A stretch of 63,788 nt of DNA, the filler included, from Octopus bimaculoides (Eukaryota), in NCBI RefSeq assembly GCF_001194135.2. It is 7 parts of 5 records of this genome, joined end to end, with 100 filler letters (N's around TTAATTAATTAA, not from the genome) between each part and the next. Parts side by side here need not be neighbours in the genome. Positions count along the whole stretch, not along the records: positions 1 to 22,736 come from NC_068982.1; positions 22,837 to 26,532 come from NC_068981.1; positions 26,633 to 36,170 come from NC_068981.1; positions 36,271 to 47,556 come from NC_068992.1; positions 47,657 to 59,927 come from NC_068991.1; positions 60,028 to 61,904 come from NC_068990.1; positions 62,005 to 63,788 come from NC_068990.1. One strand, given 5' to 3'. Numbering within the stretch: position 1 is the stretch's first letter; the number at the start of each line of letters is the position of its first letter. A program made the position numbers and the translations under genes. This document shows positions 50 to 62,292 of the stretch, piece after piece. The notes under the pieces are model-generated. The model made no database searches. It saw only the letters and a program-made list of their open reading frames with translations, and was not told the DNA's origin.

Positions 50-126
50 GCGGTACACGTGTTTCAAGCTTTACATGTGTATAATATAATGTGTATAATT
101 TACAATGTAAAGCTATCCTCAGCCGC
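50..126 (-). ncRNA. Type I hammerhead ribozyme (canonical CUGAGGA core)
   Basis: Minus strand reads GCGG-CUGAGGA-U-AGCUUUACA...UGUAAAGCU-U-GAAAC-ACGU-GUA|CCGC. Helix I is GCGG/CCGC, helix II is 9 bp, helix III is AC/GU with palindrome ACACGUGU, and the cleavage triplet is GUA. Confidence 0.85.
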
Positions 127-775
127 AAAATTATTTCTCTCCCAGGAAATTATACCAACTCGGCGTTGAAGTAGGAAGAAAGGTGTGATGTAAGAGGTGA
201 AGATCCTTTCGGTATTCTGTATAGTACTATACACAAACATGCACATGGACACACACACAATGCACCGAACACTGGTGGAGTCTATCTGAATAGTTAAATT
301 TGTTTTTGGGTAAATGGAAACTGCACAAAAGCCCGTCGAGTGGATTGTACTTATTATTCAAAGTTAGGACCTTGTCTCACAAGTTAATTCTGCCTACGAA
401 TTACATAAAGGGTTCACGTATCTGCGGAATACTCAACCAGTAATTCAGTTGATTGAACAAATGAATCCTCCTCGTTAAACGATGCAGAACCATCACGACC
501 ACCACGCCCTCAACTACCACCATTAACGCATACATCAACAAATACAAAGCGCACGGACTCAGAGAATCAGACGCACGTAAACACAGATTTCCGGATATTA
601 AAAAAGAAAAAAAGGAAACACCCACCCCAACATCACAGACAGATGCAGACACCCAAGAGAAATGAAAATGGATGCAACTGCGTCTCTTTTTCTGGGTTCT
701 GGAAAACGGTTTGAAATTGCTCCACCTCAGAAAGGAGAAAGTATATTAGTATATGTGTCTCGTGTATAGCCTCTT

Positions 776-903
776 CTTCTTCTTCTTCTTCTTCTTCTTC
801 TTCTTCTTCTTCTTCTTCTTCTTCTTCTTCTTCTTCTACTGCTGCTGCTGCTGCTGCCACTACTACTACTACTACTACTACTACCACCACTGCTACCACC
901 ACC
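776..903. repeat. Compound (CTT)n/(CTG)n/(CTA)n microsatellite at a gap edge
   Basis: Visible trinucleotide runs. Confidence 0.95.
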
Positions 904-1552
904 ANNNNNNNNNNNNNNNNNNNNNNNNNNNNNNNNNNNNNNNNNNNNNNNNNNNNNNNNNNNNNNNNNNNNNNNNNNNNNNNNNNNNNNNNNNNNNNNN
1001 NNNNNNNNNNNNNNNNNNNNNNNNNNNNNNNNNNNNNNNNNNNNNNNNNNNNNNNNNNNNNNNNNNNNNNNNNNNNNNNNNNNNNNNNNNNNNNNNNNNN
1101 NNNNNNNNNNNNNNNNNNNNNNNNNNNNNNNNNNNNNNNNNNNNNNNNNNNNNNNNNNNNNNNNNNNNNNNNNNNNNNNNNNNNNNNNNNNNNNNNNNNN
1201 NNNNNNNNNNNNNNNNNNNNNNNNNNNNNNNNNNNNNATTTATTGATGTATGTATGCATATCTATATGCATTTTTTGTGTGTGTGTGTGTAGTTATTATT
1301 TTAAGGGTAAATGTTAGTGAAATGCTGTTCGATTTATCCTAGCTACAATCAAAAGTGAATTTTATTATTCAATCCAATATCACTTTCTTATGTGAGTATT
1401 TGTATAAACCCGACACACGTCACACGTTTTCCTTTCTCCTACTCTAAGAAGACGGATCTAAGCATATAAACAATATTTATGGCTACACAATATACAGTCT
1501 GTAAAATTGTTTGATTACCGGTAAGTATGATCACTCATGAAGCACACATCAA

Positions 1553-1910
1553 TATCTATCTGTCTCTCTGCCTATCTATCTATCTATCTATCTATCTATC
1601 TATCTATCTATCTATCTATCTATCTATCTATCTATCTATCTATCTATCTATCTATCTATCGACTAATGCTTGTCTTTATGAAGATATATATAGAAACCAA
1701 TTTTACTGAAATATTACTCGGTAGTTTTTAGTAGGGTATATATTAATTTTTACAAAGAAAACATTGATTGTGATCTCGAAGTTTTGACTTGTTCACAGTT
1801 ACCCATTCCTTTGTGTGTGTGTGTGTGTGTGTGTGTGTGTGTGTGTGTGTGTGTGTGTGTGTGTGTGTGTGTGTGTGTGTGTGTGTGTGTGTGTGTGTGT
1901 GTGTGTGTGT
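1553..1910. repeat. (ATCT)n (~1553-1660) and (GT)n (~1812-1910) microsatellites; representative of dozens of similar AT/AC/TAA/CAT arrays across the window
   Basis: Visible tandem repeats; they account for most low-complexity ORFs in the track. Confidence 0.95.
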
Positions 1911-2099
1911 GCATGTGTGTGTGTTTGTGTACGTATGTGTGTCTGTGTGTAAGTGTGTATACAACGAAGACAGAACTATGGGAAAACCATAACACCGAGC
2001 AACATAAACATGAACAATGTGTCATCGGACCAAATGGCAAACCAAAGAGGTAACTCTGTTTTTACTAACTTATCTAGAAAATATGAAAGCCGACCTAAT

Positions 2100-59412: not shown

Positions 59413-59684
59413 CTATATAATATATCTAAAGAGATTTTTTCTGTCACGCTGGAACAATGCAAGAATGTACAAAGTAAACTATAATAGGAAAAGAAAACAG
59501 AAAACAAAGTTGCAGTTTTACTTTGTATAGAATTACAAAGTGAACTAAAAGTATGTTTTCTTTCCTTTTTCTTTTGTAGTTTACTTTGTACATTTTTGCA
59601 TTGTTCCAGCCTTACACAATAAACCTCTTTAAAGTAGAACCACACAATGCTTCACACAAAACTACTCTGTTTTACATATGTACT

Positions 59685-59925
59685 CTTTACTCTTTTACTC
59701 TTTAATTTGTTTCAGTCATTTGACTGCGGCCATGCTGGAGCACTGCCTTTAGTCGAAGAAATCGACCCCAGGACTTATTCTTTGTAAGCCTAGTACTTAT
59801 TCTATCGGTCTCTTTTGCCGAACTGATAAGTTAAGGGGACATAAATACACCACCATCGGTTGTCAAGCGATGTTGGGGGACAAACACATACACACAAACA
59901 TATACACACACATACCTATATATAT
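59685..59925 (-). mobile_element. SINE family B 3' half
   Basis: Same 3' sequence as 8030-8285. Confidence 0.9.
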
Positions 59926-61379
59926 ATNNNNNNNNNNNNNNNNNNNNNNNNNNNNNNNNNNNNNNNNNNNNTTAATTAATTAANNNNNNNNNNNNNNNNN
60001 NNNNNNNNNNNNNNNNNNNNNNNNNNNATATACATATACATATATATATAAAGGTATATGTATATACACACATATATATATATACATATGCATGTATATA
60101 TGTATAGTTTTATATACATAATGATATGGTAAAGCGTTACGTACCGATGGAGGTTGTTGACTTCCGCTAGTTTGTTATATTCCTCGGATAAATTTTTCAT
60201 AGTGCCGGTAGAAAGCAATGTAAAAACACGAACATTACAACGGCTGTTGTTTCTTCCTGTTATTGCTATTGTTATTATTGTTGTTGTTGTTGTTGTTGTT
60301 GTTGTGATTGTTATTGTTGTTTGCTGTTATTTTTTTTTTTAACAATGCCCGTTGGTGATGATGACCATGGTGGTGATACTCATAATGATGATGATGATGA
60401 TGATGACGATGGCGATGACGACGACGCCGACGACGTATGTGTTGTATCTGGTGGAATCATAGAAGGTAGATTGATATTAACGGAAGAAATAGCGTTATTC
60501 TGACGAAATGAATTCACAGAGACGATTTCATCTTATTTTTTCAACTTATAATAATAATAATAATAATAATAATAATAATAATAATGATAATAGTAATAAT
60601 AATAAAAATAATAATAATGATGATAATAATAAAGATGATGATGATGATGATGACAATAATAATGACTTCCGGTTTTTATAATGAATTCCTCGACCCTTGT
60701 TATTTATTTTGTTAAAAAAATAAAATTTCTTTTCCTCTCGTTTGGCAAGGGAGTGGTATGTCACCGTAATGCTGATGGTTATGTAGTAGTAGTAGTAGTA
60801 GTAGTAGTAGTAGTAGTAGTAGTAGTCGCAGTGGTTGCTGTGGTAATGATAGTGATGTAGTGTTGACGATGGCTGTTGCAGTGTTGGGCGGCGGCGGCGG
60901 TGGCCTTGTCTTTCGTGGCAGCTGTGTTGGTGGTGGTGGTAGTGGTGAGAATCATTTAAGTTCACGAAGCAGTAATTGCATATGCGCGTGTGGGTATGCG
61001 TCTGTGCATGTATATAAGTACAGTACGCACGTGCGCATGCATGTATGTATGTATGTATGTATGTATGTATGTATGTATATATATATATATATATATATAT
61101 ATATATATATATATAATTTTTAGTACTGTTCGTGCATCAAGACCATCGCCTATATATATATATATGTGTGTGTGTGTGTGTATATATATATGTATATATT
61201 TATGTGTGTTAGTGTGTATGTATGTAAGTATGTATGTATGTAATGTATGTATGTGTAATAGTGTGTGGGGTGGGGAGGGGATCCTTATGTGCCTCCCAAT
61301 GCACGTACTGTCGATGGTAGCGATTCAACTGCTTGTGTTGCTGTTATTGATGTTGTTGTTGTTGTCGTCGTCAATAGAG

Positions 61380-61600
61380 GTGGGTGGTTTGCGGTTGCAA
61401 GGATGAATGGGTGTGCGAATGGCTGGGTGTACCTGGGTGGTCGTAGTTCGAGGTACACGGGTGGTTGAGGGTAGCGACTTGACGACGTGAATTGGTGTAA
61501 GGTGCGCGGCGGTTTCGGCCTGGTTTGGGTGCTTACGTTTCCCCGGTTCGAGTCGTCAGAGGTTTAAAAACGAACACGCTCGAGACATGTGGATGCATTC
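61380..61600. promoter_or_regulatory. CpG/GC-rich island, candidate promoter or first exon
   Basis: Many retained CpGs in a CpG-poor background; minus-strand donor-like AAC|GTAAGC at 61537/61536. Confidence 0.3.
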
Positions 61601-62253
61601 ACAAGATCCACCGACATGTGCATGTGTGTGTGTGTGTGTGTGTGTATGTATGTATATGTGTACATATGCATGCTTGCATGTGTGTAAGTCTGTATTTGTG
61701 TGTACATATATGTGTGCATACGTGTGTATACGTGTGTATGTATGCATGTATGTGTGTTTAGTAACCGAAACAAATGGACGTTGTTTTTACTTACTTTATC
61801 GATAGACAGACTATAATTAATGCAGTATCTAGTAGTAGTAGTAGTAGTAGTAGTAGTAGTAATAGTAGTAGTAGTAGTAGTCGTAGTAGTAGTGGTAGTA
61901 GTAGNNNNNNNNNNNNNNNNNNNNNNNNNNNNNNNNNNNNNNNNNNNNTTAATTAATTAANNNNNNNNNNNNNNNNNNNNNNNNNNNNNNNNNNNNNNNN
62001 NNNNTACACACGTGGAAGTGGACTAACGTAAGCAGCTAACACTCCGCCCATCTGTTTTGAGTTACATACATTTAAGAACATTGTGGCTGTGAGATGTAGC
62101 GCTCAAATGATTCGAACTCCTATGTATATACGGCGGACCAACTACATACACACACACACACACACACAAACACACATACATATGCAACCACCTGTGAATC
62201 GTTGTTGATTTTTTCCCACCGTCTTCCTTTTCTATTGGACGTTCCTCTGTCTC

Positions 62254-62292
62254 CTGTTTCTGAAAAAGAGCTTTGCTCGAAACGTAAAACAG
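62254..62292 (+). ncRNA. Minimal type I hammerhead fold, G8A core (CUGAAAA), in a Penelope-like pseudo-LTR (62200-62385)
   Basis: CUGUUU-CUGAAAA-A-GAGC(UUU)GCUC-GAAAC-GUA|AAACAG; helix I 6 bp. Confidence 0.65.

Follow-up and report, generated by a model that had tools for sequence, protein, structure and literature searches.

The hammerhead ribozyme is nearly universal in canonical Penelope-like elements (PLEs) and cleaves poorly. Minimal hammerheads have already been described by the thousands across animal genomes. In metazoan PLEs, these minimal hammerhead ribozymes (min-HHRs) follow a consensus of a U-rich 5′ flank, CUGANGA-H, G10.1-C11.1 and GAAAN-palindrome-NUH (Cervera and de la Pena 2014, PMC4209133). 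The minimal hammerhead of PAc, a Poseidon PLE of Anolis carolinensis, cleaves only with protein, its catalytic mutants have no effect on insertion in vitro, and reverse transcription starts 85-92 nt past the cut site (PMC11167929). Non-LTR retrozymes are short tandem repeats of ~300 bp, whose hammerheads mostly have a short helix II and contacts between loop 1 and loop 2 (PMC7229834).

Single changes of the CUGANGA box that retain the fold are also known from nature, such as the A6C of phage Bcep176 and the U4C of a viroid, along with U3-A8 and U10.1.U11.1 (PMC3088659; PMC7151607). Every single mutant of the CUGA turn has low activity (PMC9901934). A6C lowers activity in Mg2+ (PMC3088659; PMC7151607), and efficient cleavage in Mn2+ has been seen for a natural A6C hammerhead (PMC7151607).

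The window, that is, the whole 63,788-nt stretch of Octopus bimaculoides DNA analysed here, carries six hammerhead motifs within 57 kb of called bases. Five of them had been listed in a preliminary description, and their coordinates, strands, cores and palindromic helices III are all present in the sequence; the sixth, with a canonical core, had been overlooked, so that the core changes ascribed to four of five motifs affect four of six. The canonical core C3 U4 G5 A6 N7 G8 A9 is found at loci 1 and 6 only, the changes being A6U at locus 2, U4C at locus 3 and G8A at loci 4 and 5. Helix III is absent or palindromic throughout (ACACGUGU, ACGU, ACGAUCGU, ACGAUCGU, ACGU and AUCAUGAU for loci 1 to 6), and the architecture fits the published class of PLE-type minimal, dimer-forming hammerheads, as had been proposed.

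A descriptor with at most one core mismatch, at least 4 pairs in both helix I and helix II, and a palindromic helix III matched five sites, namely loci 1, 2, 3, 5 and 6. Applied to dinucleotide shuffles, it found no site in 290/300 and one site in 10/300. The motifs exceed chance expectation, with 5 sites against a mean of 0.033 per shuffled window; a GAAAC-only descriptor gave 4 sites against 0.007 expected from shuffles, both descriptors having been tuned once the first five loci were known. An earlier, stricter descriptor recovers just one of those five. The type I fold claimed for all five is borne out by the descriptor at loci 1, 2, 3 and 5, while locus 4 passes its relaxed form only.

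Neither the independence of the five loci nor their grouping as one family survives, since locus 5 is a relative of locus 2 (76% over 51 nt; 73% mean column identity) and the motifs belong to several distinct families. The suggestion of a very large hammerhead population does hold, with six motifs in 57 kb and about 9,700-10,000 contigs per DNA run for the locus-2 family alone. Several minimal hammerheads per 64 kb of an invertebrate genome are to be expected from published surveys.

No Rfam hammerhead family appeared among the 150 of 274 rows listed for the window, nor did local Rfam scans around loci 1, 2 and 4 return a hammerhead row at E <= 10; the Rfam matches seen are microsatellite-driven miRNA noise. 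Pattern scans for relatives of the motifs gave none in metagenome contigs and none in viral contigs. A single match in a prokaryote genome (L001), which lacks the core, and a single metagenome match (L002), which lacks the UH site and helix I, were both judged to be chance.

Locus 1 (46..130, minus strand) is a type I hammerhead with the canonical core CUGAGGA, C3 at 122, G12 at 65 and A at 54 as N17. It combines a helix I of 8-9 bp, a long helix II closed by U10.1.U11.1 and the palindromic helix III ACACGUGU, with pair probabilities of 0.95-1.0 for helices I and II, and its modelled dimer reaches −55.1 kcal/mol against −42.4 kcal/mol for 2 × monomer MFE. Locus 1 would be the best candidate for genuine dimer cleavage. 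Locus 6 (53196..53256, plus strand) has the canonical core CUGAAGA with C3 at 53202, G10.1-C11.1, a two-part helix II, helix III AUCAUGAU with U15.2-A16.2, a 6-bp helix I and an AUC cleavage site (N17 at 53250); its modelled dimer is also favoured (−21.0 versus −16.8).

Locus 3 (48522..48607, plus strand) carries the core CCGAAGA, a GUC site with N17 at 48603, a long, imperfect helix II with G.U closing, helix III ACGAUCGU and a 4-bp helix I with a pair probability of only ~0.2. Its U4C, like the U.U closing pair of loci 1 and 4, is an already known variant. Across the set, a nearest-neighbour dimer model favours loci 1, 3 and 6, rates loci 4 and 5 about equal to their monomers and disfavours locus 2.

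G8A with C3 kept, which leaves C3.A8, marks loci 4 and 5 and differs from the compensated U3-A8 variant. Locus 4 (49979..50068, minus strand; core CUGAGAA) is laid out like locus 1 but damaged: helix I is broken, forming 5 of 6 pairs with just 2 of them contiguous, helix II has a base of 3 pairs, helix III is ACGAUCGU, and the ensemble probability of the hammerhead helices is ~0. It is likely a decayed relic, in which G8A arose as post-insertion decay accompanied by other lesions. An inverted repeat (49947..50108) with 30-bp arms at 49947-49976 and 50079-50108, 93% alike, encloses it, and either lengthens helix I on its distal side or represents part of the 3′ end of the element in inverted orientation. 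Locus 5 (62254..62292, plus strand; core CUGAAAA) is a minimal hammerhead with A at 62286 as N17, the same helix II stem as locus 2, a 6-bp helix I that is different yet complementary, and helix III ACGU; it sits inside a repeat related to that of locus 2, which ends ~100 nt beyond at a CT repeat. A-to-I editing might convert A8 to I8 at loci 4 and 5 and let it pair with C3 again, a speculation with very little chance of being right.

Locus 2 (47870..47906, plus strand) is a minimal hammerhead with the core CUGUUGA, C3 at 47875 and the changed position 6 at 47878. Helix II has 4 bp with G10.1-C11.1, helix III is the loop-less ACGU, helix I has 5 bp, the A after A9 is unpaired and N17 is C at 47901. 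An alternative register, UUGAAGA starting at 47878, was dismissed on inspection because helix II would then fail to pair. The motif lies in a repeat copy (47660..47997, plus strand) that we read as the 3′ end, or pseudo-LTR, of a PLE. Its 5′ side runs into an assembly gap, read depth declines toward that side, and its 3′ end, 96 nt past the predicted cut site, adjoins a TA-rich simple repeat into which loose ends at 47984-5 continue.

This repeat is very abundant. Locus 2 was matched by 9,694 genomic contigs in DNA run X2 and 9,966 in X7, counts that cover copies at least 80% alike, and 6,480/9,694 and 6,124/9,966 of these, respectively, were at least 95% alike to it; the summed depth at the motif reached 2-3 million, against 32-133 for single contigs among those listed. 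No variant row falls in the core region (47870-47892) among the best 40 of 47, a ranking that we infer; per-run change counts assign to the seven weaker rows a T>A position and a T>C position, each at 4% or more in DNA. The weakest of the 40 listed rows peak at ~6%, so the T>A row should lie lower, and A6 would have a share of at most ~6% in the copies compared. CUGUUGA is likewise the core in loose-end consensuses built from 15 and 16 further contigs. Three insect/termite RNA runs that contained 0.11 of the sequence words do not enter these figures.

Given these abundant, near-identical copies and a core free of listed variant rows, the great majority of locus-2 copies carry A6U, which is the norm of this family rather than a product of decay. 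The preliminary description had proposed testing whether CUGUUGA is fixed in a young, high-identity family; it is the norm of such a family, more than 60% of the contigs being at least 95% alike. A6C and U4C are rare single examples, whereas here a family with some 10^4 copies has A6U as its norm; this is what is new, and the remainder fits known PLE-type hammerheads.

The motifs share with the min-HHRs of metazoan PLEs the type I order, the absent or palindromic helix III, the unpaired base after A9, G10.1-C11.1, the U-rich 5′ flank and the occurrence of several families per genome in mostly solitary copies (PMC4209133). Locus 2 fits the published consensus throughout, A6 excepted, and is very similar to the Ixodes scapularis (1) entry in Fig. 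S3 of that study. A6 is present in 56/56 representatives of that figure, whose descriptor demands this core, whereas locus 2 has U6; the family-wide core variant reported there is the compensated U3-A8, while A6U is uncompensated. From this architecture and the geometry of the ends, the motifs are likely 5′-truncated 3′ ends of several PLE families.

The 3′ ends lie 96 (locus 2), ~101 (locus 5) and ~124 nt (locus 4) after the cut site, each adjoining simple repeats, and 5′ truncation shows in the depth gradient at locus 2; at loci 1, 3 and 6 no such geometry can be seen. This geometry recalls PAc, whose hammerhead lies ~85-100 nt upstream of the insertion 3′ end and likewise lacks RNA-seq ends at the cut site, but PAc has C3-G8 and an active, protein-assisted ribozyme where locus 2 has A6U (PMC11167929). 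PAc also has a known ORF beginning in helix II, whereas no PLE ORF was seen in this window. RT or GIY-YIG Pfam families matched 0/138 reading frames near the motifs, and 33 other frames gave just one weak RVT_1 match (2247-2696), on the strand opposite locus 1. With no such remnant beside any motif, we speak of likely PLE remnants, although a missing ORF is expected of 5′-truncated copies, and locus 2 adjoins a gap. The tandem arrangement of two pseudo-LTRs was not seen either, no second copy of any motif family lying within 14 kb in the window.

The explanation to which we give a slightly better than even chance is that the six dimer-type folds are truncated PLE 3′ ends and that the A6U of locus 2 descends from a weak or dead master ribozyme, amplified anyway. 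Several PLE families would leave 5′-truncated pseudo-LTR pieces carrying minimal hammerheads, with reverse transcription presumably starting ~95-100 nt 3′ of the cut site. The master element of locus 2 probably already bore A6U, leaving its ribozyme weakened or dead, and the family would have been copied to high number regardless, cleavage being unneeded for insertion. Isolated copies such as those in the window would be mostly inert, because a dimer can form only where one RNA carries a further copy that matches. By analogy with the core mutants described above, A6U likely impairs cleavage of the locus-2 hammerhead, which suggests that the family spread without need for cleavage. A family that became this abundant while carrying an uncompensated core change puts the need for cleavage in PLEs to a natural test, and locus 2 offers a 37-nt construct with a one-base control. 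The same family shows that strict-core searches can overlook an abundant hammerhead family entirely.

A competing reading, doubtful but of appreciable weight, takes A6U to mark a working, throttled ribozyme that cleaves solely as a dimer aided by an element protein or Mn2+, with its fold under selection for this cleavage. Locus 2 retains intact helices, C3-G8, G12-A14 and the A15.1-U16.1 pair, and the sole common change in the motif is C/U at N17, where C>U makes up 33-34% of DNA depth. Common variants affect 0/36 non-N17 motif positions against 11/79 positions of the 3′ flank (p = 0.013 on the listed rows), a contrast that weakens to a one-sided p = 0.08 against all flank positions (21/289) and loses its significance (p = 0.52) if both weaker rows, T>A and T>C, fall in the motif. 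This low variation and the tolerated change at N17 are both hints of a function under selection, not of a dead relic. The efficient cleavage of natural A6C in Mn2+ (PMC7151607) and the protein requirement of the anole hammerhead (PMC11167929) offer precedents, but a literature search for A6U activity gave nothing, and the 4-bp helix III leaves the modelled dimer of locus 2 unfavourable (−9.5 versus −16.0 kcal/mol). RNA reads (X24) on locus 2 show neither a pile of starts or ends nor a dip at 47901, weak evidence given that the library was unstranded and fragmented. It is possible, though we think it unlikely, that A6U is deliberate, the ribozyme being switched on by an element protein or Mn2+, or the fold being reused as a protein landing site; if this were true in a family of tens of thousands, descriptor searches would be overlooking a variant-core hammerhead layer in animals.

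We consider it improbable that the motifs are instead non-LTR retrozymes, short tandems making circular RNAs, of which loci 1, 3, 4 and 6 would be solitary monomers. In these four, helix III can be read as 2 bp capped by a palindromic tetraloop, as in retrozymes, and the U.U at the helix II base of one axolotl family matches loci 1 and 4 (PMC7229834); the lack of a PLE ORF in the 138 frames also agrees, and a preprint proposes that retrozymes derive from PLEs (bioRxiv 10.64898/2026.07.22.740005). However, retrozymes are tandem and the copies here solitary, no tandem second copy lying near the motifs among the listed self-comparison matches, in a window whose start lies 45 nt past locus 1. Including the loop, helix II covers 30-59 nt, unlike a short-looped stem of 4 bp. 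Locus 2 displays graded 5′ truncation and terminates at simple repeats, and circular-type back-joints on it occur in only 2-4 RNA reads each, none at the cut site.

It is very improbable that variant cores are complemented in heterodimers by canonical-core partners, as had been supposed. In a swapped dimer the partner's core cuts each site, which requires a match in helix I as well as in helix III, and a pairing matrix of loci 1-5 gives locus 1 no fully compatible partner: locus 4 comes closest, its 3′ arm allowing 5 bp of helix I, but helix III of locus 1 fits only 5/8 with loci 3 and 4 and differs in length from those of loci 2 and 5, which themselves share only 3 contiguous helix I pairs. 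A small A6 minority is possible within the locus-2 family, but such canonical partners would amount to no more than a few percent. That all four core changes come from sporadic decay in old copies has hardly any chance. Locus 4, with several independent lesions, speaks for it, but two DNA runs from different studies plus two RNA-type runs list no common position-6 alternative at locus 2, where it is already refuted unless the T>A row stands for position 6 with a large share.

RNA-only changes were seen in X24 at 47893 and 47899, at 12-13%. Editing at these positions was not adopted, since the changes may stem from 270 reads that enter the stretch at 47889 out of a different context.

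All five hammerhead motifs of the preliminary description are present as described, at 50-126 (-, locus 1), 47870-47906 (+, locus 2), 48522-48607 (+, locus 3), 49979-50068 (-, locus 4) and 62254-62292 (+, locus 5), although locus 4 passes only a looser descriptor. Our descriptor, which allowed at most one core mismatch and required at least 4 pairs in each of helices I and II and a palindromic helix III, returned five sites in the window: loci 1, 2, 3 and 5, and an overlooked sixth at 53196-53256 (+), where the core is the canonical CUGAAGA and the cut site AUC, together with U15.2-A16.2. 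Among 300 dinucleotide shuffles, 290 gave no site and 10 gave one; the descriptor was tuned with the five loci known, and the sixth site was detected independently of them. Locus 4 has 2 contiguous pairs in helix I and 3 pairs in helix II, and its hammerhead helices have a probability of ~0 in the folding ensemble. No hammerhead match to Rfam appeared in local scans of loci 1, 2 and 4 or among the best 150 of 274 window matches. A seventh motif at 61532-61561 (-), with a canonical CUGACGA core, a 4-bp helix II, a loop-less ACGU, a GUA site and a 2-bp helix I, is doubtful; the loose descriptor that admits it finds at least one site in 16 of 500 shuffles.

The loci had also been called independent, which needs revision for loci 2 and 5: these are related elements sharing an identical helix II stem, although their helix I arms are, as claimed, different yet complementary. 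Loci 1 and 4 have a common layout by eye, with an A-U/U-A swap in helix II, and loci 1, 3, 4 and 6 combine a long helix II with a 2-bp helix III carrying a palindromic tetraloop. Around locus 4 lies a 30-bp inverted repeat (93%; 49947-49976 and 50079-50108), adjoining a repeat from ~50109 that we take to be SINE-like.

The minimal-hammerhead consensus of Penelope-like elements (PLEs), as presented in PMC4209133, comprises a U-rich flank, a short helix I, CUGANGA followed by a single unpaired base, G10.1-C11.1 and then GAAAN-palindrome-NUH; locus 2 matches every feature except A6, which is found in 56/56 representatives of Fig. S3 of that paper, but in a search that required the core. Loci 1 and 4 close helix II with a U.U pair, as do hammerheads in PMC3088659 and PMC7229834. 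The repeats of loci 2, 5 and 4 end 96, ~101 and ~124 nt beyond the predicted cut site, each at a simple repeat; in the anole PLE, reverse transcription is reported to start 111-118 nt into the ORF, 85-92 nt after the hammerhead cut at +26 (PMC11167929). Since no RT or GIY-YIG match turned up in the 138 reading frames around the motifs and no motif has a tandem partner within the window, we can only infer a PLE origin.

Sequencing runs indicate how abundant the locus-2 repeat is. Its words were matched by 24 runs, 17 of which contain at least half of them, and reads or contigs of four runs were aligned to 47660-47995 with an 80% likeness cut-off, which places sister families less than 80% like locus 2 outside the alignment; differences were listed from 4%. 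In two DNA runs from different studies, X2 and X7, 9,694 and 9,966 contigs align, and for 6,480 and 6,124 of them the likeness is 95% or more. At the motif the summed depth amounts to 2-3 million, compared with 32-133 per single contig among the contigs listed, which suggests roughly 15,000-54,000 copies, summed depth not being a true copy number. In an RNA run, X24, the repeat attracts 4,025 of 12.9 million reads; here, several related subfamilies diverge in the 5' part, with loose ends at 47708, 47804, 47835 and 47889.

The preliminary description had asked whether CUGUUGA, in which A6 is replaced by U, is fixed in a high-identity family, and the DNA-run alignments answer that it is the family norm. 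Of the 40 of 47 variant rows listed, none falls in 47870-47892, the stretch that holds the core, the helix I 5' arm and the larger part of helix II. The one DNA change that those rows show as common within the motif is C>U at the cut site N17, with a share of 33-34%; loop II carries an additional G at up to ~3%. Per-run counts of change types place exactly one T>A and one T>C position of at least 4% in DNA outside these rows, either of which could be position 6. Because the weakest listed rows peak at ~6%, and one row drawn mainly from a single contig at 12% was retained, the rows appear to be ranked by share, and each of the two positions should lie at or below ~6%. CUGUUGA also stands in the loose-end consensus lines that a further 15 and 16 contigs provide. 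A6U is thus the norm of the locus-2 family, and since related locus 5 has A6, it likely arose in the master element of the locus-2 lineage.

We lean towards a master element whose ribozyme would be weak or dead and which would have amplified regardless. This reading draws on a complete mutational scan reporting low activity for every single CUGA-turn mutant (PMC9901934) and on a natural A6C hammerhead described as cleaving slowly in Mg2+, with Mn2+ restoring its activity (PMC3088659, PMC7151607). It also draws on the modelled locus-2 dimer, disfavoured at -9.5 kcal/mol against -16.0 for two monomers (4-bp helix III); for loci 1, 3 and 6 the modelled dimer is preferred. Insertion of the anole PLE in vitro is reported to be unaffected by hammerhead catalytic mutants, and its cleavage to require protein, with no RNA-seq ends at the site (PMC11167929); entire PLE clades lacking hammerheads are described as still attaining high copy number (bioRxiv 10.1101/2021.04.23.441226). 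X24 reads show neither an end pile-up nor a dip at the locus-2 cut site (47901), with equal strands, which is weak evidence because the library is unstranded. The main rival, a throttled yet working A6U ribozyme, seems less likely to us. In the rows listed, common variants occupy 0/36 non-N17 motif positions, compared with 21/289 flank positions (p = 0.08) or, for the 3' flank alone, 11/79 (p = 0.013); if both the T>A and T>C positions fall inside the motif, however, p rises to 0.52.

Rescue of variant cores in heterodimers, as had been proposed, finds no support in the set compared, which comprised the 20 mixed pairs that loci 1-5 can form. A swapped dimer has the core of one copy acting on the site of its partner, so both helix I and helix III must match; locus 1, the sole canonical core of the five, pairs best with locus 4 (helix I 5 bp, helix III 5/8 pairs), and loci 2 and 5 have a common helix III and just 3 contiguous helix I pairs.

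Earlier publications already cover dimer-type PLE hammerheads and how abundant they are, as well as U3-A8, U4C and A6C. Our literature search found no report of a family-wide A6U hammerhead, octopus and other cephalopods included; the large survey of hammerhead variants by Lunse et al. 2017, known through the review PMC6765202, lies beyond that search, and it or its supplements may already contain an A6U variant. Related work appears in PMC6962438, PMC13282606 and bioRxiv 10.64898/2026.07.22.740005.

The window is AT-rich, microsatellite-dense DNA of animal type and octopus-like appearance, with 6,365 N spread over 27 gaps. A Pfam search located transposon fragments, RVT_1 at 2247-2696 and a mariner transposase at 63360-63740 (-; PF01359, E 3e-18). 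Self-comparison revealed scattered pieces in several inverted and direct copies, presumably Tc1-type by their appearance, at 53779-54135 (-), 54863-55222 (-), 4645-5104, 50442-50650 and 52687-52895. A 289-bp direct repeat (98% identity; 24146-24434 and 25414-25701) flanks a 600-N gap and may be an assembly duplication; a frame within it has no Pfam match and, we assume, resembles the end of a restriction-like-endonuclease retroelement. Six paired 44-N gaps, their members 12 bases apart, occur at 22737-22836, 26533-26632, 36171-36270, 47557-47656, 59928-60027 and 61905-62004; the two pairs inspected, at 47557 and 61905, enclose an identical 12-base palindromic spacer, and such pairs are likely an assembly artefact.
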